Below, in pieces: positions 37,553 through 63,602 of a stretch of 64,000 bases of DNA. Under the pieces are notes generated by a model. The model saw only the letters and a program-made list of their open reading frames with translations. It was not told where the DNA came from and did not search any database. The stretch spans positions 672,001 through 736,000 of the forward strand of contig CAVRCF010000005.1 of the NCBI GenBank assembly GCA_963719505.1. Reading direction: 5' to 3'. The stretch is from Halobacteriovoraceae bacterium (lineage in GTDB: Bacteria; Bdellovibrionota; Bacteriovoracia; Bacteriovoracales; Bacteriovoracaceae). Each line of letters starts with the position of its first letter. Positions within the stretch are counted from its first letter, which is position 1. Both the position numbers and the translations under genes were made by a program.

Positions 37553-39379
37553 TCAGGTTAAGTTATTGTAGACACCTTTTATAAGGTCTGTTGACGTCAC
37601 AGGCTTTGTTATATGATCACTAAAGCCAGCTTTCTTTGTTCTAACTCTTTCCTCATCCATTGCATGTGCTGTAAGGGCAATAATGGGAATTTCAAGGTTA
37701 TGTTCTTTCATCATTCTGATTGCTTGATAACCATCGATTTCTGGCATTTGGAGATCTAGTAAGACGAGATCAAAATCTTTTTCCTTAAACTTCTCAACCG
37801 CCTCTCGCCCACCGTAAGCAAAATCAGCATCAGCCCCAACCTCTTTTAGGTAGGCATAAAAGAGTCGAACATTTTCTTTGGCATCATCAACGATTAAAAT
37901 ATTCTTTCCACTTAAATCAATTTGAGCAATCTCCAATTCTGGTATTCCCTTTGAAGATTTTTCATCAAGTGAAGTGATAAAACTTCCTCCATCGACAATA
38001 CCAACATCAACTTTAATTTCGAAAGTTGTCCCTACATTCTCTCTGGTCTCTACGATCTTTAAATTACCGCCCAAGCCCCTTGCTATCGATCTTGATATCA
38101 TAAGTCCCAATCCAGTCCCTCCGTAGATTCTAGAGACAGACTCATCAGCTTGCTCAAAAGGTTTGAAAAGTCTCTTTTGATTTTTCTTCGAGATCCCAAT
38201 ACCAGTATCATTAATGGTGAAGACTAATTTATTAGACTTTTTATTAAAAGTGGCAATCAGCTCAACATGCCCCTGTGCAGTAAACTTAATAGCATTACCG
38301 ATAATATTAAAAAGAATTTGTTTTAATCTTTTTTGATCAGAGTTAATATAACGAGGAAGTTTCCCTCTGCTAGAAAAAATGAGTTCTATATTTTTCTCTG
38401 CTGCTTTCACGTTTAAAAGCCCATAGACATCTGTCAAAAACTGCGTCGTCTCAACTTGCTCAATTCTATAATCTATTTTTCCTGATTCAATTTTTGAGAT
38501 GTCTAAAATCTCATCTAACAAACTTAAAAGATGATTACCATTTCTAAAAACTAACTCAATAGCCTCATCTCTCTCTTTTTTATCCAGCGAATGAGAACGG
38601 AGCATCTCTATGTAGCCTAAGATAATCGTCATGGGAGTTCTAATTTCGTGAGATATATTTGAAAGAAAGTTTGTTTTAGATTTTGATGCACTCTCTACTT
38701 GCACCATGGTTTCTGTAATTTTTTCGTGCTGAGAAGAAACAGCATTAAAAAGTGGACGGTAAACAAGGGCCCAAATAATTCCAAACTGCCCTACACAACA
38801 AAGAACGAGAAGAATTCCAAGAAGGTCCAGCTCATCCAGAGAGTTCTCTTGGTTCTCAGCAACTCTCGCACTGAGTAGTTCTAAGACTTTCCCTAACCCA
38901 GATGAAGAACTTTTAATGAGGAAACTAATATTTGTATTTACTCTTTCTTTTGTATCAATTTCTTCATCCACAAAGGAGCTTGCGACATCGATGAACTCAT
39001 AAGTCTTCTTTTCTATATTTTCTGAAATTAAAAAGTCTTTAAAGCCTTGAAGTTTAGGAAGTCTGTTCGCTTTAATCCAGCTATAAAACTCTTTCGTTTC
39101 GTTTCTCAATCTTTTGATAAGTTCAATGAATCTAATTTCATTGGCCAAAGTGATTTCTTCTCCCTCAAAACTTTGAGAAAAATCTGTTATGTCGACCATG
39201 AGAAAAATCTGTCTTTTAAGATAGGAATTGAAAGTTTGGTAGGATTGTTGATCTGAAATTAAAGAACGGTTAAGCACTAAGAAGACTGCTGAGAGGCTGA
39301 CAATAATGAGAAAGCCCACAATATTTGCAATTAAAAATTTCTTACGCGTGAGCTCTAAAAGCTCATCATAACTTCTCAT
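37553..39379 (-). CDS. Hybrid sensor histidine kinase (2 TM, HisKA, HATPase, REC)
   Basis: FLSNISHEIRTP, NAIKFT, DTGIG, GGTGLGL, LLDLQMP. Confidence 0.96.
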   Translation of the reverse strand: MRSYDELLELTRKKFLIANIVGFLIIVSLSAVFLVLNRSLISDQQSYQTFNSYLKRQIFLMVDITDFSQSFEGEEITLANEIRFIELIKRLRNETKEFYSWIKANRLPKLQGFKDFLISENIEKKTYEFIDVASSFVDEEIDTKERVNTNISFLIKSSSSGLGKVLELLSARVAENQENSLDELDLLGILLVLCCVGQFGIIWALVYRPLFNAVSSQHEKITETMVQVESASKSKTNFLSNISHEIRTPMTIILGYIEMLRSHSLDKKERDEAIELVFRNGNHLLSLLDEILDISKIESGKIDYRIEQVETTQFLTDVYGLLNVKAAEKNIELIFSSRGKLPRYINSDQKRLKQILFNIIGNAIKFTAQGHVELIATFNKKSNKLVFTINDTGIGISKKNQKRLFKPFEQADESVSRIYGGTGLGLMISRSIARGLGGNLKIVETRENVGTTFEIKVDVGIVDGGSFITSLDEKSSKGIPELEIAQIDLSGKNILIVDDAKENVRLFYAYLKEVGADADFAYGGREAVEKFKEKDFDLVLLDLQMPEIDGYQAIRMMKEHNLEIPIIALTAHAMDEERVRTKKAGFSDHITKPVTSTDLIKGVYNNLT

Positions 39380-39389
39380 TAATATTATC

Positions 39390-39704
39390 TCACAATTTTA
39401 GGCTGTCTTTTTTCAAGTTCATGTACTTTTTTATATCATTAACATAACTTTTACATCTAGATTGGTCACTTGATTTCGCTGCGCTTTCTAATTCAACTGC
39501 CAAAGTTCCTAGGTGATTGAAGCCATAAGGGGCTGAATAGCCTTTCCACTTGTGCGCTACATCCTTTATTAAAGTGAAGTCACCGCTTTGCGCTGCGCTA
39601 TCGACTTGTTCAATTTCCTCAATTCTATCAGCGTAGAACTCACTAATAAATGGCTCTAGCGCTTTATCAGCTTTTTCATTAGAAATTAATTCTTTCATAT
39701 ACAA
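39390..39704 (-). CDS. Stand-alone Hpt phosphotransfer protein
   Basis: AHKWKG..YG. Confidence 0.88.
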   Translation of the reverse strand: MYMKELISNEKADKALEPFISEFYADRIEEIEQVDSAAQSGDFTLIKDVAHKWKGYSAPYGFNHLGTLAVELESAAKSSDQSRCKSYVNDIKKYMNLKKDSLKL

Positions 39705-39768
39705 CCTCTTTATAATTGGTTAACATTTTAGAATAATTTATCATGATATTTAGCTAAGGTAAAAAAGA

Positions 39769-40461
39769 ATGAGCAAAGTTTTATTAGTAGAAGACAGTAA
39801 AGAAATCAAAAAAATGGTGGAAATTTCTCTCTCCGGTTTAGTAGAGCAACTTGATTGGGCTGAAAATATAAATGCTGCAGAGGAAATCCTAAAAGAAGAG
39901 AAATATGATCTTGTCTTGTTAGATATTCAACTGCCAGATGGAAATGGAATTGAATTTTGCCAGAAGCTTTTCATGACATATCCAGATACTTCTATATTCA
40001 TGCTAACATCTCAAGACGCTTTATCTGAAAAGGTTATGGGTTTCTCCGCTGGGGCAGAAGACTACATCACAAAACCGTTTAGTACTCTTGAATTAAAAGC
40101 GAGAGTTGAAGCAAAATTAAAAAGAAAAGAGCTTCAAAAATCTAATAGCAATCTCCTTAATTGGGAGAAAATAAAGATTAATATATCTAACCAGGAAGTT
40201 GAAATTCTTGAAGGTGAAGCATTCAAAAGTATCGATCTCACAGCACTTGAATTCAAACTTTTAATCTATTTTGCCAACAGAGTTGGACAAGTTATTGAAA
40301 GAGACACTATCCTCAATGACATCTGGGGCGAAGATGTTCATGTATACTCAAGATCTGTCGACACTCATGTAAGTAAATTGAGAAAGAAACTCGAAGGCGT
40401 ATCTGGTATCATTGAATCTGTTCATGGCGCTGGTTACAAGTTTAATCCTACTCATAATTAG
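39769..40461 (+). CDS. OmpR/PhoB-family response regulator
   Basis: LLVED, LLDIQLPDG, DYITKPF, LTALEFKLL, RSVDTHVSKLRKK, GAGY. Confidence 0.96.
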   Translation: MSKVLLVEDSKEIKKMVEISLSGLVEQLDWAENINAAEEILKEEKYDLVLLDIQLPDGNGIEFCQKLFMTYPDTSIFMLTSQDALSEKVMGFSAGAEDYITKPFSTLELKARVEAKLKRKELQKSNSNLLNWEKIKINISNQEVEILEGEAFKSIDLTALEFKLLIYFANRVGQVIERDTILNDIWGEDVHVYSRSVDTHVSKLRKKLEGVSGIIESVHGAGYKFNPTHN

Positions 40462-40479
40462 AACAAAGATTTTTCAAAT

Positions 40480-40509
40480 AAAAAAAGGGAGCTTTAAGCT
40501 CCCTTTTTT
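40480..40509. terminator. Bidirectional terminator
   Basis: AAAAAAGGGAGCT-TTA-AGCTCCCTTTTTT. Confidence 0.9.
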
Positions 40510-40510: not shown

Positions 40511-40879
40511 TTAGTTAATTGTTTTATCTAACTTTGATTCTATCTGTTCACCGTACTCTTCCATTTTTTCTTTAAAATCATCCCATTTCTGTGCTGTTGT
40601 TTCACTGGCTTGTTCTCCAGCTTTAGCCACCTCTTCTCTGTATTTGGCTGTGCTGGCTTTTAATTCTTTGTACTCTAGAACAAGCTTATCTTTAGCATCA
40701 CCTGAGAGCTTTACGGTTTTATCTTTTAACTTTTCAAGCTTAATTTCGAGCTTATCTAACTGTTGAGAAGCCTTCATTTTAAATTCTTCATAATCACCCT
40801 TATCTGAGGTTGTTGCATAAGCACCAAGAGAAAGGGATAAAATAACTGTAGTTAATAATAATTTTAATTTGTGTGACAT
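40511..40879 (-). CDS. Secreted amphipathic helical stress-type protein
   Basis: AAGGAGG RBS; signal peptide; all-helical and charged, KWDDFK. Confidence 0.75.
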   Translation of the reverse strand: MSHKLKLLLTTVILSLSLGAYATTSDKGDYEEFKMKASQQLDKLEIKLEKLKDKTVKLSGDAKDKLVLEYKELKASTAKYREEVAKAGEQASETTAQKWDDFKEKMEEYGEQIESKLDKTIN

Positions 40880-40952: not shown

Positions 40953-40970
40953 TGTGTACTTTAATACATA
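40953..40970 (-). promoter_or_regulatory. Island box 2
   Basis: TGTGTA-ctttaa-TACATA; minus-strand CATATT at 40910-40905 (gap 42). Confidence 0.75.
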
Positions 40971-40979: not shown

Positions 40980-41333
40980 TTATTGTTCTCTAAAGAAGCC
41001 CTTCAAAGTAAGTATCTTATCTTCGAGTTGGGCCAGCCTCTCATCAATATCTTCGAGTACATCATGGCTCTCTTTGGTGTCGACATAATCTAGTTTGGTA
41101 AAAAGCATATCTATTGATTCAAACTTATTTGATATGTGCTGAGATAGGTTCTCATAGATGGAGATGACACTATCATCGCGCTCTCCCATCTTTTCTTCAA
41201 TCAACTTCATTTCTAACTCAAGAGCATAAAGTTTTTCGTAGTGACTTTTCTCCGCTATCTCGTTTAGAATCGTATCATGTTTTAAAAAGTGGGGTTGGTA
41301 TTCTGAAATGTTTCTTACATTGAAGTTTTTCAT
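40980..41333 (-). CDS. Hypothetical acidic coiled-coil protein
   Basis: AAGGAG RBS; helical heptad pattern. Confidence 0.7.
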   Translation of the reverse strand: MKNFNVRNISEYQPHFLKHDTILNEIAEKSHYEKLYALELEMKLIEEKMGERDDSVISIYENLSQHISNKFESIDMLFTKLDYVDTKESHDVLEDIDERLAQLEDKILTLKGFFREQ

Positions 41334-41408: not shown

Positions 41409-41426
41409 TGTGTAGATATCTACACT
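41409..41426. promoter_or_regulatory. Island box 3, serving divergent promoters
   Basis: TGTGTA-gatatc-TACACT; plus TAATAT 41469-41474 (gap 42); minus TATGAT 41367-41362 (gap 41). Confidence 0.82.
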
Positions 41427-41506: not shown

Positions 41507-41716
41507 ATGAACAACGATCAATTAGAAGGAAACTGGAAAGAATTTAAAGGGAAGATCCAATCGAAGTGGGGCGAACTTACTGAAGATGAGATGGATAAAA
41601 CCCAAGGTAATTTAGACCAACTAAGCGGTAAAATACAAAAGAAGTTTGGAGATTCGAAAGATGAAGTACATAAGTATTTTAATTCAGTACTAGAATCATT
41701 TAATAAGAAAAACTAA
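41507..41716 (+). CDS. csbD: CsbD/YjbJ-family stress protein
   Basis: DQLEGNWKEFKGKIQSKWGELTEDE...GKIQKKFG. Confidence 0.95.
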   Translation: MNNDQLEGNWKEFKGKIQSKWGELTEDEMDKTQGNLDQLSGKIQKKFGDSKDEVHKYFNSVLESFNKKN

Positions 41717-41725
41717 GAGTATATA

Positions 41726-42235
41726 GTGGAAAAAATACTGATCACCGCTGGATTCAAAGATGTAGAGCAACTAGAACTTGCTTCGCAAAAGCTCATCAGT
41801 TCTGGTATAAAAAAAGAGATGATAAAGTATATCACCTCTCCTATATCTCGTTACAGCGGTGTTCATTTCCATTCGGAATCTAGGGGGACAACTTTTGGTT
41901 TTCGAGCGATACCATGGGGATTAACATCGGGGGTAGTATTTTACTTATTATTTCTTTTTTTAGGGTCAAGCAAAGGTTTTTTTGCAATAATAGGTTCTAT
42001 TAATTTAAATAATTTTCTACTCAGTGTCCTTGCTTCTGCCTTTATTGCAATGTTTATTGGTTACGAGATCGGCAAAAGAACGAAAATTAACTTTGTTGAA
42101 ACTCAAAAAAAGTATCCAGAAGAAGAAAATATAACTTTAAGCATTGAAACTGACAGCCAAAATAACCTTGATGTACTCAATACACTTAACCAATTTGAAG
42201 TCGTTAACCTTCATTCGGCAGCGACTCTAAAATAG
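41726..42235 (+). CDS. 2-TM membrane protein inserted in a ferredoxin-like fold
   Basis: ITAGFKD..LELA..KL N-terminus, two hydrophobic helices, beta-alpha-beta C-terminus. Confidence 0.65.
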   Translation: MEKILITAGFKDVEQLELASQKLISSGIKKEMIKYITSPISRYSGVHFHSESRGTTFGFRAIPWGLTSGVVFYLLFLFLGSSKGFFAIIGSINLNNFLLSVLASAFIAMFIGYEIGKRTKINFVETQKKYPEEENITLSIETDSQNNLDVLNTLNQFEVVNLHSAATLK

Positions 42236-42242
42236 GAGACAT

Positions 42243-42515
42243 ATGAACAATGAACCAAGAAGAAAAAAGCCTGAGATTGATACAACAAGGCCAAATAAGC
42301 CAGAGATAAAACCAGGTGAGAAAGCGAATAACCCTGAAATTAAACCTCATACACCTGATCCAGAAATAAAACCTAACAACCCTAGGCACCCAGAGCCAGA
42401 GATCCAACCTAATCCAAGACCCTCTCAGCCAAAGCCTGAAATTAAGCCAAATCCGACACCTTCTCAGCCTAAGCCGGATGTAAAGCCTAATCCAGGGCCT
42501 AAACGAAAAATTTAA
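42243..42515 (+). CDS. Pro-rich disordered small protein with PEIKP repeats
   Basis: AGGAG RBS; repeated KPEIKP/PEI units and a 13-aa tandem repeat. Confidence 0.7.
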   Translation: MNNEPRRKKPEIDTTRPNKPEIKPGEKANNPEIKPHTPDPEIKPNNPRHPEPEIQPNPRPSQPKPEIKPNPTPSQPKPDVKPNPGPKRKI

Positions 42516-43354
42516 TATATTAGGAAGCTTACTTTTTTATTTGATTTGGAAAACTCCAAGGTTGAAGACTCATACCATTCCCCATCGAGTTTAACTGATA
42601 TATTTTTATCTGATTTGACCTTAAGTTCAGTTAGATAGTGCACTTCTATCTCATCCCTTGCATCAATTTCGTCATTAAATGTAAGCTCTGAAATTGCTTG
42701 GATTGAGCTAAACATATTGCCGTCATTGCAAGATAGAAAACTGAAATCCTCTCCGAAGGAAGAAGTATAGGAGGGGTTAACTCTTATTCCACCGCCGGCG
42801 TATAAACCTTGAGAGACAACAAAACCACAAGTATTAATGTCCTTTGTTTCTCCATCAAGTTCTACTGAGACTTTAATAACATTATCGGAAAACAATTTCT
42901 TTAACCCTGATAAATAATAGGATAATTGCCCTATGGTCTTTTTCATACCAGAGTCCGAATCTTCAGTGATTTCAGCAGGTGCACCACAAGTTGCAACATT
43001 TATAAAATATCTGTCATTCAACTTCATGATGGGTACTTCAATCGAGGTATTTCTTTTTAAAATTCTATCCACTCTAAGGGCGTCTAGCTGAGGCATCGAA
43101 CCAAAAATTGACTTTGCAAAGTCATTAGCAGTTCCCATTGGAATATATATGACCTTTGGGGTAAAGTTAAAATTAAACTTATTAATGAAGTAATTTAAAC
43201 TGCCGTCACCGCCAATAATAACAAAAGGATCTTCAGTAGAAGTATACGTACTTGATTCATCGTACACCTCTACTGAGTAACTACTTTTCACTTTATCTAA
43301 AAGTTCACTGCATTCGGATAGCTTTGACTTTGATCCTACTATTATTAGTTTAAT
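42512..43354 (-). CDS. Diacylglycerol/lipid kinase (YegS/DAGK family), probable ATT start at 43354
   Basis: IGGDGS, IPMGTANDFA, YFIN, LDGE; frame stays open to ATT-AAA-CTA-ATA-ATA-GTA (IKLIIV), overlapping the upstream TAA. Confidence 0.85.
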   Translation of the reverse strand: MKLIIVGSKSKLSECSELLDKVKSSYSVEVYDESSTYTSTEDPFVIIGGDGSLNYFINKFNFNFTPKVIYIPMGTANDFAKSIFGSMPQLDALRVDRILKRNTSIEVPIMKLNDRYFINVATCGAPAEITEDSDSGMKKTIGQLSYYLSGLKKLFSDNVIKVSVELDGETKDINTCGFVVSQGLYAGGGIRVNPSYTSSFGEDFSFLSCNDGNMFSSIQAISELTFNDEIDARDEIEVHYLTELKVKSDKNISVKLDGEWYESSTLEFSKSNKKVSFLIY

Positions 43355-43836
43355 TATCTCATTCCAATCATAGACTCTAGTATTTCTATGTGCTTCTTTT
43401 GCCGAGGTATAAAAACATTTTCGATTTGCCGTTTTTGAAGTTTTGTAAGACTTGAGAAGCCAAGCATCTTTTCATAGTTATCAAGACCATGCTCTTCACC
43501 TTTCTTCAAAGCAGACAATGCTGTATTATCGCCTATAATCTTTGAAGCTCCAACAAAAATTTCGACCATGGTTCCCCACAGACTTGATTCAAGCTCTGGA
43601 ACCTTGCCCTCATCAATAGCTTCCGTAGTCCAATACTGGATAGCCTTGTCGTGCTCTTCTTTCATTGCAATCAACTTATGAGCATCATCTTTCTTTTGAA
43701 AGTTTTCAAACACTTGATCATAAGCTTCAGTCGCTGAGATCTCTCCTCTGAGGATCTCATTAATGTCTTGATTAAAGAATTCATTCGGGTTTTGTGGATT
43801 GTAAGGCTCCACTGGTGTTTGTAAGTTCATAGTCAT
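43354..43836 (-). CDS. PA2169/DUF2383-like ferritin-fold four-helix stress protein
   Basis: LRGEISATEAY, EEH, ALKKGEEHGLDNY. Confidence 0.85.
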   Translation of the reverse strand: MTMNLQTPVEPYNPQNPNEFFNQDINEILRGEISATEAYDQVFENFQKKDDAHKLIAMKEEHDKAIQYWTTEAIDEGKVPELESSLWGTMVEIFVGASKIIGDNTALSALKKGEEHGLDNYEKMLGFSSLTKLQKRQIENVFIPRQKKHIEILESMIGMR

Positions 43837-45179
43837 TCTCCTTTTTTAGATTTCCCTCGAAGTTGAACAAGTGCATCTCTAACCTTTTGAAATGCAAATT
43901 TGTTGGCTCCTCGTTTATAGGGATAAATTCCATCTTTTTTATTAACTGCTGATGTACAATTCTCATGAATTGTTTTCATGATTTCTTTAAGTTCTGAATC
44001 GACTTCCGAAGCAGTCATAGGGTCGTGAGTAGAGTTCTGTGACCTCTCCAGACCACTGACAGCGACACCGCCAGCATTCGCTGCCTTTCCTGGAAGATAG
44101 ATGATGTTTTTATCAATAACAAGATGAATAGCTTTACTGGTAAGAGGCATATTTGCTCCCTCTGCAATGACCATATCTTCATTTTCTAAAAGAGTCTTAG
44201 CATCCTTTTCATCAATTTCATTTTGAGTAGCACACGGCATAGCTATATCAGCCTTAAACTGCCACGGTTTATCAGAGGCGCGGAACTCAGCACCGCTGCA
44301 CTTAAAATCTTTAAGTCGTTTTCGTTTTACAAATTTAAATTCTTTCAACTCTTCTAGTGTTTCTCTTGAGATTCCATCAGAAAAATAGAGAGTTCCACCC
44401 GAGTCGGAAACTGTTAGTGGAATCGCTTCCTTATCTAAAAGCTTCTCAACGGCAAAAAGAGCAACGTTTCCAGATCCAGAGACCAGGACTCTTTTCCCTT
44501 TCAGCTTTCTTTCATGGGCTTCAAGAGCTTCATTTAAAAAATAGACACATCCATACCCGGTGGCTTCTTTCCTTATTTTACTTCCGCCGAAACTGACGCC
44601 TTTACCTGTGATAACGCCCTCGTGTTTTCCTTTAATTTGGAGAAATTGCCCAAAGAGATAACCTATCTCCCTCGCTCCAACGCCAATATCACCGGCAGGA
44701 ATATCTTTATCAGGTCCAATAAAGGGATGGATCTCTGTCATAAAAGCCTGACAGAACCTTCTAACCTCACCTTCAGACTTACCTTTGGGATCAAAGTCAG
44801 AGCCTCCCTTAGCTCCTCCCATCGGTAACCCAGTGAGAGCATTTTTAAATATTTGCTCAAAACCCAAAAACTTCAAAACACTGTCGTTGACCTTTGGATG
44901 AAATCTAAGACCACCTTTGTAAGGTCCCAAGCAGTTATTAAACTGAACTCTCCACGCATGATTGACACGAATTTGATCTTTGTCATCAAACCACTCAACC
45001 TTAAACTTTATGACTCGATCAGGTTCGATAAGTCTAAAAAGAGATTCTTGCAACTCTGAGTAAGAGTGATCATCATCTGGAGAGAGTACATCCTCAGCAA
45101 CTTCTGTTACGGCAGCGTGAAACTCATGATCTCCATGGTGAAATTTCTCTAGGTATTCTTTTATTTGATCTAATGACAT
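43833..45179 (-). CDS. gdhA: NADP-specific glutamate dehydrogenase
   Basis: GPYKGGLRFHP, GGAKGGSDFDPK, PAGDIGVG, SGSGNVA, KAANAGGV. Confidence 0.96.
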   Translation of the reverse strand: MSLDQIKEYLEKFHHGDHEFHAAVTEVAEDVLSPDDDHSYSELQESLFRLIEPDRVIKFKVEWFDDKDQIRVNHAWRVQFNNCLGPYKGGLRFHPKVNDSVLKFLGFEQIFKNALTGLPMGGAKGGSDFDPKGKSEGEVRRFCQAFMTEIHPFIGPDKDIPAGDIGVGAREIGYLFGQFLQIKGKHEGVITGKGVSFGGSKIRKEATGYGCVYFLNEALEAHERKLKGKRVLVSGSGNVALFAVEKLLDKEAIPLTVSDSGGTLYFSDGISRETLEELKEFKFVKRKRLKDFKCSGAEFRASDKPWQFKADIAMPCATQNEIDEKDAKTLLENEDMVIAEGANMPLTSKAIHLVIDKNIIYLPGKAANAGGVAVSGLERSQNSTHDPMTASEVDSELKEIMKTIHENCTSAVNKKDGIYPYKRGANKFAFQKVRDALVQLRGKSKKGE

Positions 45180-45187
45180 TTTTATCC

Positions 45188-45688
45188 TTATGTTAAGTGA
45201 GACTTATACATCCAAGATGTCTTTTCGTGATTTGCTAAAAGTGTTATTAAAAAATCCTCTGTAACAGGATCTTCTCCCATTGCCTCTTTGTTTTCTTTAA
45301 GAAAAAATTTAATCTCTTCTTGAATGGTTAAACTAGAATTAAAAAGGTCTGAGAGCATCTGGTTGGTTGAAAGCTTCTCCCCATTCATTTCTTTTAATGT
45401 ATTTTTATCGTTCATTTTTGAAACAGTACTTATTGGGGTCTCGTCTAAAACTCTTACCCTCTCAGCAATATCGTCCATAACGACCAGTAAATCCTTGTAC
45501 TGAGTTTCTAGAAAGCTATGAATTGTTAGGAACCTAGGTCCGGTGATATTCCAGTGGTAGTTTAAGGTTTTAGTGAAAAGGCCATATTCATTTGCCAAAA
45601 GACTGTTAAGGAAGCTTGTCATTGATGAAATGTGTTTTTGATCTACATTTCCGATTGGTCTTTTTGTTGAAATTTCTGCTGAATTCAT
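45188..45688 (-). CDS. dps: Dps DNA-protection ferritin
   Basis: YHWNITGP.F..IH..LE, DDIAER, HEKTSWM. Confidence 0.95.
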   Translation of the reverse strand: MNSAEISTKRPIGNVDQKHISSMTSFLNSLLANEYGLFTKTLNYHWNITGPRFLTIHSFLETQYKDLLVVMDDIAERVRVLDETPISTVSKMNDKNTLKEMNGEKLSTNQMLSDLFNSSLTIQEEIKFFLKENKEAMGEDPVTEDFLITLLANHEKTSWMYKSHLT

Positions 45689-46352: not shown

Positions 46353-46358
46353 TTAATT

Positions 46359-55392: not shown

Positions 55393-55475
55393 ATCTTTAA
55401 ACCTGAACAGGCTTTAACTTCATTGTAAACTAGACTATCTTAAGACCAATGCTCGTTTATATCAGGGAGGTATAC

Positions 55476-55781
55476 ATGAAAATATTTTTCATAGCATCTG
55501 CATTAGTTGTCTTAGTATCGTGTGCAAGTACGGAAAAAAGAGAATCTCTTGGAGAATACGTTGACAATTCAGCTATTTCGTCCAAAATAAAAACGAAACT
55601 TATTTCAGAAGATAATATCTCCTCAACCTCAATTGATGTTGAAACATACAAGGGACATGTTATTTTGTCGGGGTTTGTTGACAATGAAGTTCAAAAACAA
55701 AAAGCTCTTAAACTTGCAAAAGAAACTAAGGGCGTAGTAGAAGTTAAAGACGCGTTAATCGTGAAAACGACAATAAAATAA
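55476..55781 (+). CDS. OsmY-like BON-domain lipoprotein
   Basis: GGGAGG RBS; lipobox LVSC; GEYVDNSAISSKIK, IDVETYKGHVILSGFV. Confidence 0.92.
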   Translation: MKIFFIASALVVLVSCASTEKRESLGEYVDNSAISSKIKTKLISEDNISSTSIDVETYKGHVILSGFVDNEVQKQKALKLAKETKGVVEVKDALIVKTTIK

Positions 55782-55791
55782 GGAGAAACAC

Positions 55792-56010
55792 ATGAAGAAT
55801 TTAGTAACAAAGTTTTTAATGCTTACATTTGTAGCATTTTTAGCAACAGCTTGTTTTGAAAGCAAGACTGAAAACGCTGCAGAAGACGTTGGAGAGAAGA
55901 TCGAGGAAACTGGAGATGACGTAATGGACAGTGCAGAAGACGCAGTAGACAATGTTGAAGATGCGGCTGATGACGCAGTTGACAATGTAGAAGATGAAAT
56001 GGATCAATAA
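55792..56010 (+). CDS. Small acidic LEA-like lipoprotein
   Basis: Lipobox ATAC; 11-aa repeat AEDAVDNVEDA/ADDAVDNVEDE. Confidence 0.8.
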   Translation: MKNLVTKFLMLTFVAFLATACFESKTENAAEDVGEKIEETGDDVMDSAEDAVDNVEDAADDAVDNVEDEMDQ

Positions 56011-56781
56011 ATGATTTTAAGGGGGCTCCTTCTTTTTGTCCTTAGTTTTTCGTTTGCTTATGGAGAACTAAAAAGCAGATATTTTGAAGCCCCCTCTTTC
56101 GAAAGAGTAAAACAAGCAGCCTCGTCTGCAACGAACACCTACCACTTTCGAATTCCCCTGGCCTTGGGCCTTATCGCTTTTGCCTTCGATGGAAGAATAA
56201 GTGACAGCGCAGCGCGACACACACCTCTATTTGGATCACAAGAAAACGCAGAAAACTGGACTGACGCTTTAGTCGTGGGCCTTGTTCCTATGATGCTATA
56301 TTCTGCCATGCAATCAGATCTTCCCGTTAAAGATGAACCGGCTTATATAACCAGAGCAAAATTTATAGGATTTCAATCACTCATTATTTTGGCCGACTTC
56401 ACTCTCATTACATCTTTAAAGAATTCATCTAAAAGGGTAAGACCTGACGAATCAGATGACCTAAGCTTCCCTTCAGGTCATTCAAGTGTTTCAAGTGGGC
56501 TTTCAAGGACTGTTTTTAACAATATTAATAATTCTCAACATAGAGACACTACTTTTGGCAGAGTTCTCCAAGGAACTGCTTTTACATCCTCTATTCTTGT
56601 CGCTTGGGGACGAGTGGAAGCAAGAAAACATCATCTATCAGACGTCTTACTAGGTAACGCTCTTGGGGCATTCATTAGTGACTTCCTCTATGCAACTTTC
56701 CTTGAGGAACCAACAAAAATAGAGTCTGCCTTTTTTATCAATGGACAACAACAGTCAATGCGTTTAAGCTACTCGTTTTAA
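56011..56781 (+). CDS. PAP2-family phosphatase
   Basis: K..SKRVRP, SFPSGH, RVEARKHHLSD. Confidence 0.9.
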   Translation: MILRGLLLFVLSFSFAYGELKSRYFEAPSFERVKQAASSATNTYHFRIPLALGLIAFAFDGRISDSAARHTPLFGSQENAENWTDALVVGLVPMMLYSAMQSDLPVKDEPAYITRAKFIGFQSLIILADFTLITSLKNSSKRVRPDESDDLSFPSGHSSVSSGLSRTVFNNINNSQHRDTTFGRVLQGTAFTSSILVAWGRVEARKHHLSDVLLGNALGAFISDFLYATFLEEPTKIESAFFINGQQQSMRLSYSF

Positions 56782-56793
56782 ACCAAGGACCTA

Positions 56794-57552
56794 ATGAAAG
56801 CTTTATTCTCTCTTCTGTTTATACTCACTTGTATAACAAACTCTTTTGCCCAAACCAATACCGCTAAATCAATAGATCCAACGGTGACTGACAGCAGATC
56901 AGCTTGGGAAATCGAACAAAAAAACCTCCTCTCTCCGTTCACTACACCTGCCATTTGGATTCTTGGTGCAGGCTCACTTTTAACTTATGTTGTTTATAGG
57001 GCCAAAGAAGACAATGGGGATATTGGTTATAGAGAAGACCATAGAGAGGGGAATACATCGACAAATCTTGCCAATCTAGCAGGTTGGGGCTTATTTCAAA
57101 TTGGTTATACACTAACTCAACTTCCTGGCTTGATGGATAATGATAAAAAAGCACTAGAAAATACTGAGATGATGTGGAAATCAACTCTCTACACAAGCCT
57201 TACAACTTTTGTTTTAAAACTTTCTGTCCGAGAGGAAAGAAGAAATCTTGAAGAGAGATATGAATCATTCCCATCGGGACATGCATCAGCAGCATTTGCT
57301 TTTGCGACCAACGTAGCACTCAGACACGAATGGTATTGGAACTTTATCAGTGTACCACTCGCTCTTTGGGCATCAGTCTCAAGAGTTCATGATGACTCTC
57401 ATTATATCCATGATACGATCTTTGGAGCCGCACTAGGAATGAGTTTTGCCTATGGGATGAACTATATTAGTGATGGTGAAGAAGTACCATTTTTACTTGG
57501 CTACGAGCCAGTAGAAGACGGTGGCGGAATCGTCTTTAAATACAAGTTCTAG
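56794..57552 (+). CDS. PAP2-family phosphatase
   Basis: KLSVREER, SFPSGH, SRVHDDSHYIHD. Confidence 0.9.
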   Translation: MKALFSLLFILTCITNSFAQTNTAKSIDPTVTDSRSAWEIEQKNLLSPFTTPAIWILGAGSLLTYVVYRAKEDNGDIGYREDHREGNTSTNLANLAGWGLFQIGYTLTQLPGLMDNDKKALENTEMMWKSTLYTSLTTFVLKLSVREERRNLEERYESFPSGHASAAFAFATNVALRHEWYWNFISVPLALWASVSRVHDDSHYIHDTIFGAALGMSFAYGMNYISDGEEVPFLLGYEPVEDGGGIVFKYKF

Positions 57553-58373
57553 CTCTCCAAAGCAGCTGACCGATCCACAACGGGTCTTTGAATATTATTG
57601 TCTCGAAGGACCCTATTTCCTCTGGTGGTGATGTCGGTTAAAAAAGATTTCTCATATTTTACATCTAAAACGTACGCCTTCACACTCACCTTCACGACAA
57701 AGGTGTTAGATATGGCACTTTCTTCAAATACGAGAGACACTTTCTTTTTCAAATAAACGAAACGGGAAGTAATCACAACTTCATGTAAAAGTTTATGAAC
57801 ATGATCTAAGTTTTCGAAGATGGAAACATAGAAAGTTGTCACAACCATCATTTGCAGGGCGCCAGAGTTTCCCGATGATACAACATCAGTTAAAAACTTA
57901 GAGTTTGGAATCGTGATAAGATTATCATCAAGTGTGTTGAGTCTTACTGATCTCAAACCGATGTTGACAATCTCGCCGTAGTTATCTTCAAATTGAACTC
58001 TGTCTCCTACTTGAAATGGCCTATCAAAAAGTAAAATAAATCCCGCGATAACAGAGCCGACCAAATCTTTGAGTGCAAAACCAAATGCAACAGCAGCCGA
58101 GCCCCCAATACCTACGAGCAGCTCTCGACTCGGTTGGAAAACAAAATAAAACACGCCTAAAACACCAATAAGATAAGAGACAAAAGATAAAACGGTGGTT
58201 AATTGTAAGATAAGAAGTCTTTTACCTGAAAATTTTTCTTGAAGTTTAGCTGACCAAAGATTGAGAAGCCTTACACCTGCCACAATACAGAAAACAAGAA
58301 ATACAAATAAAAAGATCTTATCTATGTTGAGAAAGTTAAAAATTAAAACTGAAATATCGTTACTAGTTTCCAT
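57549..58373 (-). CDS. MscS-family mechanosensitive channel
   Basis: AFGFALKD, DRPFQVGDRV, IGLRS, TIPNS. Confidence 0.93.
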   Translation of the reverse strand: METSNDISVLIFNFLNIDKIFLFVFLVFCIVAGVRLLNLWSAKLQEKFSGKRLLILQLTTVLSFVSYLIGVLGVFYFVFQPSRELLVGIGGSAAVAFGFALKDLVGSVIAGFILLFDRPFQVGDRVQFEDNYGEIVNIGLRSVRLNTLDDNLITIPNSKFLTDVVSSGNSGALQMMVVTTFYVSIFENLDHVHKLLHEVVITSRFVYLKKKVSLVFEESAISNTFVVKVSVKAYVLDVKYEKSFLTDITTRGNRVLRDNNIQRPVVDRSAALES

Positions 58374-61371
58374 AGATAAAATTCTTTGCTCGAAGCTGTT
58401 TAATTAAAATATGTTGGGTTGTAATATCGATCATAAATCGACTCCTATCATCTCTATATAAATATTTTCTTTCCAAGGAAAGTTTAAGAGCATTTCTCAC
58501 AACTCCTTTGGGAAGGTTTGAAGTTGAAACGACTTCGTTTGTTGATAAATTTTCGTGCTTTAGAATATGGGCAATGACAAAGAGTTGATCATCTGAGGCA
58601 AAAGCCAAATCGACAAGCTCTACCTCTTTTGGCACATTCACATTAAAAGTTGATTTATTTTTTCGAGAAAGAGCTGTAAGCCAAAGAGCTAATGCAGCTC
58701 TGGGATTCCCTCTGGAGAGCTCCCAAAGAAGCTTAAAAAACTTTGATTCAATTGAAGCATATCTATCAATTTCATCTTGTGACTTAGTTGCACTTATGAG
58801 GAGGTCGTAAGAGAGTTTGTAAGATGACTTTTCATGTCGCTTCATAATTAACTCTTTGATTTTTTCGTCTGACCACCCTTTCAGTTCAAAAACGTTTCTG
58901 AAAAACTGTGTTTTACCAAATGCACAGTCTAAGTAATTCCAACTCGACTTATTAAAAGAAAGAACCCAAAAGATATTTTCAGTCGGAAGGTTTAAGATAT
59001 CTGTTAAGTAATAGTAAGCTTCAAAGCCGCTGGTCTGGGATAAAAAGACATTTTGGCACTCATCGATAACAACAACCTGTTTCTTTTCGTACTTTCTATC
59101 ATGCGAAGGAAGATCAAAATTTACATCATCAACAATATCTAAAGTTTTTGCGATAAATTCCTTCAACGATTTCTTTGTTAGAGTCTTAGCTGGCATCTTT
59201 GTATAAATAAAATCAATATCCTCCCCTACTTGCTCTTCCAATTCTCGGCATAGATGTTTCAAAAGACTTGTCTTACCTATCCCCTTATCACCATAAAGAA
59301 CGAGAGAGTGCTCATCTGACTTTCCACTTTGCCAAAACAAAATATCCTCTTTCAGTTCTTTCTCTGTCTTTTCATCTTGAACAACATAAAGATCATCTTT
59401 TGACAAAGAGTACATTGCAAACTCTTCTTTATAGTCATCTGGGATCGACTTTTCAGAGCCTTCACTCGCCTCAATACTTTCAATTTGTTTTTTAAAAAGA
59501 TTAGCTGAGAGTTTTTTAGAAAAGGTAAAGTTTTCAGTTAAATCAATAATGAAATTAAATAAAGAAAGTATAATAATAGCAATAAATAAGAGAATTGGCT
59601 CAAGCTTACCAGGAACAAAGCTTAGGAATCGGCTAAAACCGTCAACAACAAAGCCTGCAAAGCGAGTCTCTAAATACCTTTTAAATTCTGCTTCCCACAT
59701 TTTCGCAAGTGAGAGAACTTGTACGAAGGAATAGATAAAAACGATAATTTTTATAATCGTAAATATATAAACTTTACCGATGGCCGCTCCGGTAAAAAGA
59801 TTCATCAAAAGATAGAACAACACAATATTTTTAAACTTATTTGAAGTAAGATCAGCTTTTTTTCTAAAGGACAAATAACTAGTTGAGTTAACCGAAGAAA
59901 CTGAGCTTAAAAATAAAGTAAGTGCTGCTTTGACAAGTCGAGAAATGATAATGATTTCAAAAAATCTCAAGAAGAAACTATATTCTAAGAAAAGCTGATT
60001 CTTCTGTATAATAAGGATGGAAATTATCCATAGTATTTCTTTTGAGTTATCTTTAATTTTGTTCCATCCACTTGAGAGTGTATTGAACAGCTTCGAGTTC
60101 CTTCTTTTTATCGCCTGCGTTCTTAGAGTTTTCGTTATGATTCCCTCAAGTTTTACAAACCCTTTGTTTAAACCAAATAAAACAAGGATCAAAAGAACAA
60201 GCCTAAAAAGCATAAAAGCAATCTCGGCATATCCACTGCGACCTCTATAGAGCATCTCTCTAATTTTAAAATAACTTGAGTAGGCATAGCTTAAAAGCCT
60301 ATAAGGAGAAAGCTTTACTTCTTCAACAATCAAAGTCATCCCCTGAATCGAAAAGATACGTTGAACTTTATAAGCAAAACTTGACTGCGCAAACAATGTT
60401 GAACGCAAGGAGTTCACTTGAACGAGAAGATCGTTTAAGAGCTTGAGTTCACTCTCTTTTTTATCGGTTAGAGAAATTATGGACTCTTGTTTAAGATTGA
60501 CAATACTTTGCCACAAAGAAATAACTTCCTCTCTTTGTTTTTTTGGAAGCTCTTGCAATCGAGCAGGAAGAATGGGGATAGAGGGAAACTCAAAAGAGAT
60601 TTCCGTATCTAAAAGATGAGAAACATTCTCTTTTGAAACTTCTAGCCAGAGAGCTTCAAGAACTTCAAAGTCCTTGTATGTCGCTGGCATTTTATCTTCT
60701 ATGTATTTTATTTTTGTCTCAAGGCTGGAGTTATACTCAATTTGTTTTTCTAAAAGTTCAATTTTTATTTTCTTAAGAGTTTTGGTATAGAGAATGAGCT
60801 CTTTTTGTAAAACATCCTTGGTAGACTCTATCTTAACTTCATCGTCGGCAAGAGATTTTTCAAGTAGGACTTTCTCATTCTCTGAGATATCATTAGATTT
60901 GGAAAGTTGGTCTTTTAAGCTTGGAATAGCACTGGAATTATCAAGATTAGATTTTAAGGCATTATTAAGTTTTTTATTTTTTTTATAGAGTTCGACTTTT
61001 AAGAGATTTACTTTCTCAGAAAGAGAGATTAAGTCTTCTCTTTGCTCACTTTTATTTAGTTCCATTAAACAATTTACTAAGTATAAATGTTCTGGAGCTA
61101 CGCCCAAATTTCTCTTTTGATCTTGCTTTAGTTTTTCAATAGTTTTGTCATCCAAGACATTGTAGTCATGTTCAAAAACTTCACTTAAGATTGACCCTTC
61201 GACCTTCTCACCCTTAAGAACACTGTTAAGCTGAGTTATTGTTAGATTTAATCGCTGCTGAGCATCTTTATATAAAGAGTTTATATTTTTTTTCTGACAA
61301 TCAATTTGGGTAAAACCTGGGATCGAGAATATGAATATATTGAAGAGTAAAACGCATAATAAATTTTTCAT
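58363..61371 (-). CDS. Large membrane ATPase: periplasmic coiled coil, TM bundle, AAA/STAND-like NTPase, C-terminal wHTH-like region
   Basis: Signal peptide; Walker A GDKGIGKTS; Walker B VVVIDE; SRGNPR; several hydrophobic helices in the middle. Confidence 0.8.
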   Translation of the reverse strand: MKNLLCVLLFNIFIFSIPGFTQIDCQKKNINSLYKDAQQRLNLTITQLNSVLKGEKVEGSILSEVFEHDYNVLDDKTIEKLKQDQKRNLGVAPEHLYLVNCLMELNKSEQREDLISLSEKVNLLKVELYKKNKKLNNALKSNLDNSSAIPSLKDQLSKSNDISENEKVLLEKSLADDEVKIESTKDVLQKELILYTKTLKKIKIELLEKQIEYNSSLETKIKYIEDKMPATYKDFEVLEALWLEVSKENVSHLLDTEISFEFPSIPILPARLQELPKKQREEVISLWQSIVNLKQESIISLTDKKESELKLLNDLLVQVNSLRSTLFAQSSFAYKVQRIFSIQGMTLIVEEVKLSPYRLLSYAYSSYFKIREMLYRGRSGYAEIAFMLFRLVLLILVLFGLNKGFVKLEGIITKTLRTQAIKRRNSKLFNTLSSGWNKIKDNSKEILWIISILIIQKNQLFLEYSFFLRFFEIIIISRLVKAALTLFLSSVSSVNSTSYLSFRKKADLTSNKFKNIVLFYLLMNLFTGAAIGKVYIFTIIKIIVFIYSFVQVLSLAKMWEAEFKRYLETRFAGFVVDGFSRFLSFVPGKLEPILLFIAIIILSLFNFIIDLTENFTFSKKLSANLFKKQIESIEASEGSEKSIPDDYKEEFAMYSLSKDDLYVVQDEKTEKELKEDILFWQSGKSDEHSLVLYGDKGIGKTSLLKHLCRELEEQVGEDIDFIYTKMPAKTLTKKSLKEFIAKTLDIVDDVNFDLPSHDRKYEKKQVVVIDECQNVFLSQTSGFEAYYYLTDILNLPTENIFWVLSFNKSSWNYLDCAFGKTQFFRNVFELKGWSDEKIKELIMKRHEKSSYKLSYDLLISATKSQDEIDRYASIESKFFKLLWELSRGNPRAALALWLTALSRKNKSTFNVNVPKEVELVDLAFASDDQLFVIAHILKHENLSTNEVVSTSNLPKGVVRNALKLSLERKYLYRDDRSRFMIDITTQHILIKQLRAKNFIYGN

Positions 61372-61438
61372 ATTTAATCTTATAAACTATGATTTCCTTA
61401 AGCAATTTTTAATTTTAACTCAACGCAGTGGGTAAGAC

Positions 61439-61804
61439 ATGATAAAAAGTTTGGCTTTAATTGCCCATGATCATCAAAAAGATAAATTAGTCGATTTCGC
61501 AAAAAGAAATTTCAAAGAGCTATCCGGCTTAGAGCTTTATGCGACCGGAACGACAGCTAAAAGGCTTGCGCAGATAGGACTGACAAATATTACAGCTGTG
61601 GCCAGCGGTCCTCATGGAGGAGATCTTCAAATTGGATCTCTTATTGTCGAAGACAAAATTGATGGAATGATCTTTTTATGGGATCCGCTCTCCCCACAAC
61701 CCCACGATGTTGATGTTAAGGCGCTTTTGAGAATTGCAGTTTTAAAAAATATTTTCTTGGCCAGTAATTTGAGATCAGCTGAGAGCCTTATCCACCACCT
61801 TTAG
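61439..61804 (+). CDS. mgsA: Methylglyoxal synthase
   Basis: ALIAHD..K, ATGTT, SGPHGGDLQIG, QPHDVDVKALLR. Confidence 0.95.
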   Translation: MIKSLALIAHDHQKDKLVDFAKRNFKELSGLELYATGTTAKRLAQIGLTNITAVASGPHGGDLQIGSLIVEDKIDGMIFLWDPLSPQPHDVDVKALLRIAVLKNIFLASNLRSAESLIHHL

Positions 61805-62701
61805 ATCCAGCGCGGGCCTGGTCGATAATTCTAAAGTTGATACGGCTAGTTCGACCTCTCCTGCAGAATCATTAATCTTTTTAAGTATCGTCCTCGTGAG
61901 TAGATCTTTTGTTTTTCGTCGAAGTTTATAGTTTGTAATATACCTTAAGGTAAATTTAATTCCAGATGGGTCTATCAAACAAGTAACCATATGATCAATT
62001 TGGGCATCTTCGATCATAAATTTTCGAACCAGGTTCTTCCACTCTTCTTTTGATTCAATTTCAAACTGTTCAACAACTTCTTTAGCACTACTCTTTAGGA
62101 TTTCATCTGTTATTGCAATATCAGACTCAGATCTCACGACAATAGAGAGTTCATCCCACAAAAAAGGATACTCTCCAGAGTAGTTAAATACTGGCTCTTT
62201 AAAAACGAAGCTATTTAAAAGTCTTACAGTTCTTCCGTTGTAAAGATCGCCGTCGACCCAGTCTCCAATCTCCATCATGGTCGTTCTAAGGAGACCAATA
62301 TCAATAACATCTCCCCTTATACCACCGAGCTTTACTCGATCTCCTACACGATAAAAGTTATTAAAGGTGATAGCAAACCACCCAGCGAAAGAGGCTATTA
62401 CCTCTTGTAAGGCAAAGGCAATCCCTGCACCAGCAACTCCAAAAGCGACAGAAACCTCTCCTAGTTTGTCTGTGAAAATAACAATACTTGCGATAACGAT
62501 GAGTAAATAACTTAGAAAGCTTACAACTTTTTGAGATTGATATCGAGATGAGACAGAACTTACTTTTTTTCTAAAGTAAGTTTTTATAAATCTTGATATA
62601 CCCACGATAACTACGATCGTAATGATATAAATGACGATCTTTGACACCGCTGGATCAAAAAGCCATTTTTCTAGTTCTACATAATTCATTTTATTCTCCA
62701 C
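61775..62701 (-). CDS. MscS-family mechanosensitive channel
   Basis: GIAFALQE, YRVGDRV..GGIRGDVIDIG, PFLWDE. Confidence 0.93.
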   Translation of the reverse strand: MENKMNYVELEKWLFDPAVSKIVIYIITIVVIVGISRFIKTYFRKKVSSVSSRYQSQKVVSFLSYLLIVIASIVIFTDKLGEVSVAFGVAGAGIAFALQEVIASFAGWFAITFNNFYRVGDRVKLGGIRGDVIDIGLLRTTMMEIGDWVDGDLYNGRTVRLLNSFVFKEPVFNYSGEYPFLWDELSIVVRSESDIAITDEILKSSAKEVVEQFEIESKEEWKNLVRKFMIEDAQIDHMVTCLIDPSGIKFTLRYITNYKLRRKTKDLLTRTILKKINDSAGEVELAVSTLELSTRPALDLKVVDKALS

Positions 62702-62816
62702 CCTTACACCTTACTAAATAATACTTAGTACAAAAATGCAAACTCAGCACAATATAATGGCCAGTCAATCTCTCAACATATCTAGTAAAAGAGTGAAGTC
62801 GTGCCTTTGAACTCTT

Positions 62817-62847
62817 AAAAAAAAGAGGGAAAGCAAAGCTTCCCCCC
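62817..62847 (-). terminator. Intrinsic terminator
   Basis: Minus strand GGGAAGC-TTT-GCTTTCC hairpin followed by a long T-tract. Confidence 0.75.
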
Positions 62848-62870
62848 AATATAACTATAAAAAAATAGTT

Positions 62871-63398
62871 TTAGTATGTATAACCTAAAGTCAAAAAGCC
62901 ATAAGCGTTTTCACCTGCTAAGTCATCATTTGACCAATTTAGAGCTGTCATGTACTCAAGCCCTACTGACCAATCTCTATTTAGGTAGTAAGAAGATCCG
63001 ATTCTAAAGAGCGGACCGAAGGTCGTTTCGTCATCGTCAGTGTCTCCAGCATCTTCGTGTCTCATTATAGCAAGACCAGTACCAAGATAGACATCTGCAT
63101 TTGAGTTATCCTCCAGATGATGAATAAGGGAGGATCCGACAAGTAATTGTCTATCTTTTTGACCTAAACCGTCAGCTCCATTATCCCCAGAACTCATAAC
63201 AAGGGCATCGACACCTAAAGAGCCTTTTCTTCTTTCATGAGAAACACCACCGTTAAAAGTTGTATTTGAAAACCCACCGTATAACTTAGATATACCTGTT
63301 GAATTTTCCCAGTTTCTCTCGATCTTCTCTTCCAAATCTGCCATGGCAGCACCAGAGATTAGTGCTGTTGACAGCAATGTTGCATTTAAAACTTTCAT
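62871..63398 (-). CDS. Small outer-membrane beta-barrel (OmpW/OmpA-like)
   Basis: Signal peptide; VYLGTGL, SYYLNRDWSVGLEY, C-terminal LGYTY. Confidence 0.8.
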   Translation of the reverse strand: MKVLNATLLSTALISGAAMADLEEKIERNWENSTGISKLYGGFSNTTFNGGVSHERRKGSLGVDALVMSSGDNGADGLGQKDRQLLVGSSLIHHLEDNSNADVYLGTGLAIMRHEDAGDTDDDETTFGPLFRIGSSYYLNRDWSVGLEYMTALNWSNDDLAGENAYGFLTLGYTY

Positions 63399-63428
63399 TC
63401 TTTATAATCCTTTATTCAAATTTAATAC

Positions 63429-63602
63429 TTATACGTTTTTAGATTTTGAAGCCATCCCTCTGATCAGAGAAATAACAAAGAATGCTAAAAACAAGAAAAA
63501 ACAAATTTTTGCAAATCCTGCGGCAGCACCTGCAACTCCGCCAAAACCTAGAACTGCAGCAATAATTGAAATGAATAAAAATGTGATTGTCCAACTTAAC
63601 AT
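63429..63602 (-). CDS. DUF1328/YtjA (UPF0391) small membrane stress protein, missing from the ORF track
   Basis: [57 protein letters not shown]. Confidence 0.92.

Follow-up and report, generated by a model that had tools for sequence, protein, structure and literature searches.

The 26-kb stretch at positions 37553-63602 of a 64-kb window (G000:C5:672001-736000) from a Halobacteriovoraceae bacterium lies between a SWIB gene and a ClpB-type gene, contains 38 open reading frames (ORFs) and combines a likely phosphorelay with many genes of stress-related families. The initial annotation described it as a self-contained, possibly transferable general-stress island with its own phosphorelay, and the question raised by the locus is whether it is such an island or part of a larger and older system. 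The assembly under study (G000, with C-numbers for its contigs) comprises 3.69 Mb at 36.8% guanine plus cytosine (GC) and is 83.5% complete; coordinates given without a contig are positions in the window. Here we present sequence evidence that the stretch is likely the hub of a genome-wide stress regulon, in which a relay of hybrid kinase, Hpt protein and OmpR-family regulator would activate promoters carrying a shared box. In this role the relay would likely take over a function for which other bacteria use dedicated stress sigma factors.

The box and its promoters

The box is an 18-bp palindrome, TGTGTA-N6-TACACA. Its consensus over 86 sites from other genomes, initially chosen by a matrix derived from the window, is TGTGTAGA(A/T)(A/T)TCTACACA, with A/T-rich flanks. 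In a spacing scan of the genome, TGTGT-N8-ACACA yielded 13 exact matches vs 0-4 for spacers of 4-7 and 9-12. Within the intergenic DNA of the stretch, eight sites fit this form with at most one mismatch (16 strand matches vs 0.18 in shuffles). A matrix built from the other genomes' sites (at least 12 bits) found 63 sites in G000, 10 of them within 26.5 kb here where 0.46 were expected; the shared box proposed in the initial annotation is thus real. At 15 bits or more, 37 sites were found vs 2-15 with eight column-shuffled matrices, and some of the 63 sites, being intragenic, are probably noise. The sites of the locus, listed without strand, and one associated transcript candidate are as follows.

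37336..37353, box 1; -10 element at +43, rightwards into the candidate small RNA
37408..37545, plus strand, candidate box-controlled small RNA (ends inferred); its terminal hairpin adjoins the 3' end of the kinase gene
40953..40970, box 2; drives mscS in a sister species, the gene being missing here
41409..41426, box 3; divergent promoters, with -10 elements at +43 rightwards and +42 leftwards
45764..45781, box 4; upstream of dps
47964..47981, box 5; the strongest site
48262..48279, box 6
50049..50066, box 7; upstream of the multi-BON gene
53079..53096, box 8
55375..55392, box 9; -10 element at +44
63679..63696, box 10; leftwards to the DUF1328 gene, 77 nt past the end of the stretch

A TAnnnT hexamer starts 43 nt past the box in 22 of 116 orientation rows in G000 (2-9 at other offsets) and in 54 of 172 rows from other genomes (1-9 elsewhere, 16 at offset 48). 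Taken as the -10 element, this hexamer places the box at about -72 to -55. The box promoters have no TTGACA consensus at -35 and no C bias at -13. Echoes of the half-site CTACA occur at +11 and +22, the second ending at about -35, and are confined to the side of the box towards the -10 element; the p-values for the two shifts are 1e-6 and 4e-9 in the other genomes and 3e-4 and 0.02 in G000, and are overstated because genomes and orthologous promoters are kin. Shifts of 10, 12, 21, 23 and 33 showed no echo. Tandem half-sites with a period of 10-11 bp, as are characteristic of OmpR/PhoB regulators, are thus present as a statistical property of degenerate sites, and binding to them is predicted. 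PhoB binds 11-bp tandem repeats (PMC4447250) and four GlnR protomers are arranged head-to-tail around -35 (PMC10235972); on account of this likeness, the 11-bp echo indicates a winged-helix regulator.

Operon inference places 23 to 27 of the 38 genes under a box-linked promoter, which lends the uncharacterised ones among them the status of candidate stress factors that the initial annotation had given them. The 11 genes lacking such a promoter include those for the kinase, Hpt, the regulator, the AAA-MscS pair and MgsA. Regarding the individual sites, box 1 and its -10 spacing are retained in the sister species though the spacer sequence has diverged, and the 3' 60 nt of the candidate small RNA with its hairpin are conserved in L173 (fold z -2.4 and -1.5). 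Rfam yielded no match for this candidate and nothing credible across 36800-64000. Box 2 retains a -10 element at +43 facing right with no gene there, and the region (40953-41010) looks like a relic promoter because the sister species has mscS at that position. On the other side of box 10, clpB has a TTGACA hexamer of its own.

A second palindrome of the genome, the 17-bp target TGTCTA-N5-TAGACA of IS1202-type elements, is similar to the stress box and yet a different motif; none of the 13 IS1202-type copies in G000 (e.g., C2:381980-383122) lies within 400 nt of a box. This palindrome may be the site of another regulator.

The proposed phosphorelay

Three adjacent genes, identified by Pfam/NCBIfam matches, encode the likely relay, the kinase and Hpt genes being divergent from the regulator gene.

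37553..39379, minus strand, hybrid sensor histidine kinase with HisKA (H244), HATPase and receiver (D542) domains
39390..39698, minus strand, stand-alone Hpt protein (H49)
39769..40461, plus strand, OmpR/PhoB-family response regulator (D52), the proposed box-binding activator

H244 and D542 are invariant among 17 kinases, H49 is invariant in 16 of 16 aligned Hpt proteins and D52 is nearly invariant in an alignment of 28 regulators. Hybrid kinase, Hpt protein and terminal regulator are therefore genetically linked with conserved phospho-residues, as in a phosphorelay, and phosphotransfer between them is predicted. The regulator combines a receiver (Asp, Thr and Lys) with a Trans_reg_C winged helix, the architecture of the OmpR/PhoB family, and all 28 aligned orthologs share one recognition-helix stretch, RSVDTH-SKLR, without variation. 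Among the 25 NCBIfam models listed it exceeded no named cut-off, and its 172 bits against the PhoB equivalog (cut-off 296) place it outside PhoBR. The kinase has a helical sensor domain flanked by two hydrophobic membrane segments. No Pfam sensor domain was found in the 17 kinases and Foldseek with the full kinase model returned matches to kinase cores only; an Atlas lead (0.95) suggests a PilJ/NarX-like sensor bundle.

In the mechanism that we propose, the membrane kinase would sense an envelope or osmotic cue and phosphate would pass from H244 via D542 and H49 of Hpt to D52 of the regulator. The phosphorylated regulator would bind the palindrome at about -72 to -55 with high affinity, extend head-to-tail across weak half-sites at about -50 and -39, and recruit housekeeping sigma70 polymerase to promoters with a poor -35 region. 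The predicted output is cross-protection (Dps, SodC, MsrAB, PfpI, MscS, BON/OsmY, CsbD, Hsp20, HPF and Ctc), which would act in prey-free, salty, dry or starved periods.

Extent of the proposed regulon in the genome

Self-containment, as claimed in the initial annotation, was contradicted by the distribution of sites: 53 of the 63 lie outside the stretch, a second cluster included, and inside it 11 of the 38 genes have no box-linked promoter. The second box-rich stress cluster (C4:38800-65400) has eight sites, which precede genes for MscS, Pmp3, DUF6627, PfpI and DUF883; it also contains genes for Hsp20, hemerythrin, YihY, a chloroperoxidase-like hydrolase, DUF2254, DUF2959, an aldehyde dehydrogenase, a Ser/Thr kinase and a PP2C phosphatase. 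Downstream of its box-linked pfpI operon lies an OmpR-family paralog (C4:55194-55910) with a degenerate receiver (no Response_reg match), 45% identity to the hub regulator and a similar helix. A third, small cluster with two boxes is located past clpB, about 8.5-12.4 kb beyond the end of the window (L001:10500-14430), and comprises a pyridoxamine-oxidase-like gene with a box upstream, DUF748, an endonuclease/exonuclease/phosphatase gene and a PLD-family (cardiolipin synthase-like) gene. Single sites precede genes for SodC, MsrAB, HPF, Hsp20, a zinc dehydrogenase and an OmpA protein, weaker ones a second HPF, a third CsbD and a BON gene, and the ElaB gene is also among the stress genes preceded by boxes outside the stretch. 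These are textbook stress families, usually members of RpoS, SigB or EcfG regulons.

Two regions, C4:1-22000 and C2:430500-437322 (the latter at the end of its contig), mirror the DNA next to them and are full of frameshifts. They are probably assembly artefacts in which sites and genes are duplicated, and their sites were excluded from the box counts.

Eight Sigma70_r2 matches were found in the genome and none in the window, in agreement with the initial annotation, which saw no sigma factor here. The one group 2/3 sigma factor of G000 that was analysed (341 aa) is of the sigma32 type and not RpoS; the genome also encodes ECF sigma factors. Promoter patterns of EcfG, SigB, RpoS and sigma54 were scored in their general consensus forms: those of EcfG, SigB and sigma54 were not found at the targets and that of RpoS occurred at chance level, and control by any of the four was rejected.

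Conservation of regulator and box

Orthologs of the regulator were found in 23 of 150 other genomes of the family (56-69% identity; 19 candidates were scored per genome, so that misses are possible), among the three other members of the genus in one, and in 19 of 151 genomes of a second lineage, the order around G167, a Pseudobdellovibrionaceae genome (52-63% identity). At least three strand matches to the one-mismatch box pattern occurred in 15 of the 23 regulator-bearing genomes vs 1 of the 127 others in the family, and in 11 of 19 vs 2 of 132 in the second lineage (hand count); as kin genomes are not independent, these tables express association and not probability. Both exceptions in the second lineage carry a regulator relative of 47% identity, which in G176 has the same recognition helix. 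DUF2383 tracks the box as well (16 of 23 regulator-bearing genomes vs 19 of 127 others, hand count).

Loci were compared at length for 22 of the 23 regulator-bearing genomes in the family and 15 of the 19 in the second lineage (37 in all). Hpt is encoded in 33 of them (20 and 13, respectively) and a hybrid kinase, not always the ortholog, in 19 and 9; the kinase-Hpt-OmpR module is conserved in two lineages of the Bdellovibrionota. Regarding the cargo, Dps is present in 18 of the 37 loci (14 and 4), DUF2383 in 8 and 6, MscS in 8 and 8, and CsbD in 7 and 4. A matrix made from the window's sites alone detected a site in 32 of the 37 loci (18 of 22 and 14 of 15), vs 2 of 78 SWIB loci, 2 of 78 loci of other OmpR genes and none of 12 additional loci. 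The corresponding densities were 12.9 and 9.0 sites per 100 kb in the regulator loci vs 0.59, 0.16 and 0 in the controls, of which one set is more GC-rich and the OmpR set consists mostly of distant OmpR proteins from a scan of the genome collection. Together, the box and the linked kinase, Hpt and regulator genes bear out the suggestion of the initial annotation that this is a co-regulated stress module with its own phosphorelay, as far as sequence can indicate.

A quick tree of 50 regulators, from which L022 was left out, grouped 16 of the 18 sequences of the second lineage together, with weak support; several congeners fell together and some genera were split. The opposite case considered in the initial annotation, that the genes are a syntenic core of all relatives, does not apply, the regulator being present in 23 of 150 genomes and the cargo genes being reshuffled between genera.

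Gene content of the stretch

The remaining genes of the stretch, from left to right, are as follows.

40511..40879, minus strand, secreted sll1863-like helical stress protein (NCBIfam E-value 2e-6, under the cut-off)
40980..41333, minus strand, 117-aa uncharacterised protein, box-linked
41507..42515, plus strand, CsbD, 169-aa membrane protein and 90-aa proline-rich protein
42512..45688, minus strand, Dps, NADP glutamate dehydrogenase, DUF2383 ferritin-like protein and YegS-like kinase, likely a single operon
45775..47898, minus strand, HPF-like protein, pentapeptide protein, Ctc/bL25 and 159-aa membrane protein; order kept in G002
47988..48197, minus strand, CsbD-like protein (weak)
48346..48896, plus strand, 52-aa lipoprotein and DUF2391 protein
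48898..49983, minus strand, multi-BON protein
50988..52997, minus strand, 230-aa secreted protein, metallophosphoesterase and 185-aa protein, likely a single operon
55449..57552, plus strand, OsmY-like BON protein, acidic repeat lipoprotein and two PAP2 proteins
57549..61804, no strand assigned, AAA protein-MscS pair and MgsA, without box
61775..63602, minus strand, DUF1328, outer-membrane barrel protein and second MscS

Pfam/NCBIfam matches were obtained for CsbD (41507), the YegS-like kinase, DUF2383, Dps, Ctc/bL25, two BON proteins, two MscS, MgsA and DUF1328, so that most of the stress families listed in the initial annotation stand. Three of its assignments are weak: the second CsbD (47988; PRK10428 at an E-value of 1.5e-6, 32% identity to the first), the HPF-like gene (47599), which has zero Pfam/NCBIfam matches and an Atlas lead (S30AE, score 0.88), and the LEA-like lipoprotein, called from sequence with weak YtxH and Ag473 matches. 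Its further statement that nearly every recognisable gene is of stress type was too broad for the stretch, about nine recognisable genes being not stress-specific (glutamate dehydrogenase, the pentapeptide protein, the metallophosphoesterase, two PAP2, DUF3943, DUF2391, the outer-membrane barrel and the 1002-aa AAA protein). Ctc, Dps, MgsA and YegS are single-copy in the assembly. The gene for the 230-aa secreted protein is box-bearing in G002, G069 and G134, too.

The bL25/Ctc gene (46359-46979) shares its box-linked operon with the HPF-like and pentapeptide genes, and Ctc was also found in the box-bearing regulator loci of G002, G049, G087 and G117. The pair of the 1002-aa membrane AAA protein and MscS (57549-61371) recurs in L176, a locus that lacks both the regulator gene and the box, at a distance of about 1 kb from SWIB; the pair may be an older resident of the neighbourhood.

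Age of the neighbourhood

The initial annotation envisaged a possibly transferable island and suggested comparing its tetranucleotide and codon usage with the flanks; against windows of the genome, the stretch proved ordinary. Its tetranucleotide distance is exceeded by 72% of 275 windows and its codon distance by 76% of 276, GC3 is at the 47th percentile, and the GC content is 35.9% (11th percentile) vs a mean of 36.8%. No tRNA, integrase or other mobility gene and no terminal repeat was found in the stretch. In the part seen, which comprises the left flank and the left 9 kb, two metagenome contigs from a sister species are collinear with the window at 70-76% nucleotide identity, from up to position 27 kb of the window via SWIB, the relay, CsbD, YegS, DUF2383 and glutamate dehydrogenase to Ctc; they have the boxes at the corresponding positions, lack dps where it stands here and carry an additional mscS. 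In the congeneric G002 the left-hand module is present and the flanks are different. Farther left, at 20223-24216 of the window, three adjoining ORFs resemble the photolyase/cryptochrome family by eye.

The empty site that the initial annotation envisaged in close relatives, with SWIB and clpB adjacent, did not appear: no such junction was seen in 80 SWIB loci, of which only 33 have at least 5 kb downstream, and gene order is poorly conserved at the distances of the relatives examined. SWIB and clpB are 458 kb apart in the complete G006, and the clpB contig of G002 ends 38 nt upstream of clpB. Recent transfer was rejected on the ordinary composition. The findings fit an old module with many losses and local reshuffling and not a recent insertion; occasional transfer within the phylum may have occurred.

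Evaluation of alternative explanations

Several observations weigh against a relay that activates the box promoters, in addition to the overstated p-values of the echo. It is CRP, NtrC/TyrR and NarL-type dimers, more usually than OmpR proteins, that bind symmetric 18-bp palindromes. With no box at the relay genes here, a signal of autoregulation is lacking. The orthologous kinase does not always lie beside the regulator, and several loci have another hybrid kinase. No pattern match was found in 5 of 23 regulator-bearing genomes of the family and 3 of 19 of the second lineage (one of these genomes has a GC-rich locus, and several of the assemblies are fragmented), and G055 has two strong sites and no detected regulator. 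At 83.5% completeness, a sigma factor or regulator may be missing from the assembly, and the C4 paralog could be a binder or a feedback element. We consider it improbable that the box is bound by another protein (a CRP/FNR-family or NtrC/TyrR-type dimer, or the paralog at C4:55194-55910), with the relay acting upstream or merely travelling along. The symmetry of the palindrome, its A/T-rich flanks and its position upstream of the -35 region suit such a binder, as do a CRP-like gene (by eye) in one regulator locus, L014, and the paralog's similar recognition helix inside the second box cluster. CRP-family genes, however, are present in 140 of the 151 family genomes, the majority of which lack the box, and do not track it; G145 has the regulator and box matches and no CRP match; and the 11-bp tandem echo is a winged-helix pattern. 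The regulator is moreover the only annotated DNA-binding protein seen recurring across the loci, which are labelled by best hits and were selected by the regulator itself.

If the relay does bind the box, it might still answer one specific cue, e.g., low oxygen, nitrate or a stage of the life cycle, and not serve a general response. The PilJ/NarX-type resemblance of the sensor bundle (the Atlas lead named above) and the presence of fumarase, glutamate dehydrogenase and OmpA proteins among the targets speak for this unlikely but reasonable possibility. The targets as a whole, on the other hand, span oxidative, osmotic, heat and ribosome-hibernation functions and belong to families that are usually members of RpoS, SigB or EcfG regulons. 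Acquisition of a self-contained island en bloc by horizontal transfer between SWIB and clpB appears very improbable and, for recent transfer, is already largely refuted. Its patchy occurrence (23 of 150 family genomes, one of three genus members), the differing flanks in G002, the GC content at the 11th percentile and the genera split in the regulator tree would be accounted for; the ordinary tetranucleotide, codon and GC3 values, the lack of tRNA, integrase and terminal repeat, the left-flank collinearity with the sister species, the lack of a SWIB-clpB junction in 80 SWIB loci (33 of them with at least 5 kb downstream), the 458 kb between the two genes in G006, the 53 of 63 sites located elsewhere and a tree that mostly separates the two lineages argue against it. 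The hub of a genome-wide stress regulon under the kinase-Hpt-OmpR relay thus remains the reading that we prefer.

Comparison with known systems

In its outputs (CsbD, Dps, OsmY/BON, DUF1328, DUF883, Pmp3, PfpI, Ctc, MscS and YegS) the regulon resembles those of RpoS, SigB and PhyR-NepR-EcfG. It differs from them in its TAnnnT promoters with an activator box, no sigma factor of these regulons and no promoter pattern thereof having been found in the 83.5% complete assembly. The His-Asp-His-Asp architecture is that of TorS-TorR, ArcB-ArcA and LuxQ-LuxU; the best NCBIfam matches of the kinase are TorS, BarA, LuxQ and ArcB, and Hpt is weakly matched by the TorS and LuxU models. Unlike in these unorthodox phosphorelays, scores are far under the cut-offs (TorS 302 vs 676), and Hpt is encoded separately and shows a distinct motif, HKWKG-PYGF. 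PhoB and GlnR share the 11-bp tandem repeats and the head-to-tail protomers near -35 that recruit the housekeeping sigma factor, an arrangement predicted here; as described in the reports cited above, their anchors are direct repeats, whereas that of the present box is an inverted repeat. No phosphate-uptake targets as for PhoB were seen among the box targets of G000.

The closest working analogue would be Acinetobacter BfmRS. BfmR of Acinetobacter baumannii is an OmpR/PhoB-family regulator needed for desiccation, osmotic and peroxide tolerance in an organism from which RpoS is apparently absent (PMC6181384); it binds TTACA direct repeats, and an inverted repeat at its own promoter has been reported (PMC11212878). 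Common to both systems are, as far as these reports describe them, an OmpR/PhoB-family regulator over general-stress, desiccation, osmotic and peroxide protection, a similar half-site (TTACA there, (C/T)TACA here) and, at the bfmR promoter, overlapping inverted and direct repeats. In contrast, the genome-wide BfmR motif given there is a 15-bp direct repeat with a 5-bp spacer, and here the core is an 18-bp palindrome with 11-bp tandem half-sites at a fixed distance; the classical two-component pair of BfmRS is replaced by a hybrid kinase with a stand-alone Hpt protein, the targets are clustered beside the relay, and the phylum is another one. No chain named BfmR was among the matches of the regulator listed from the PDB (60 of 83).

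The clustering of stress genes has a precedent in Pseudomonas aeruginosa PA2134-PA2190, a chromosomal cluster of general-stress, storage and catalase genes, for which the accessible text describes no dedicated relay or box (PMC9262955). The full-text literature, outside of which lie most subscription journals and supplements (e.g., Bdellovibrio transcriptome and motif tables), yielded no description of the regulator or the box. On the sequence data, this is apparently an undescribed conserved stress regulon of the Bdellovibrionota with a likely cognate phosphorelay.

Implications

How obligate bacterial predators survive between prey, and how this survival is controlled, is little understood. 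The finding supplies a regulator, its site, the geometry of the promoters and, for one genome, about 60 candidate target sites; about 15 uncharacterised small proteins thereby receive a likely role. Next to Acinetobacter BfmR, it would be a further example of a general stress response that is run by a response regulator in place of a sigma factor. For an OmpR-family protein, an operator made of an inverted anchor and tandem extensions would be out of the ordinary. Among predators considered for biocontrol, shelf life and persistence in the environment could be predictable from whether the module is present. We consider the chances evenly balanced that the relay is the Bdellovibrionota's own master switch, i.e., that it predates the split between Bacteriovorax-like and Bdellovibrio-like lineages, reads a hybrid operator in which 11-bp tandem extensions lead from an inverted-repeat anchor to the -35 region, stands in for RpoS, SigB and EcfG, and accounts for the persistence of some lineages. 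If this is true, some predatory lineages outlast prey famine, salt or drying and relatives that lost the relay do not.

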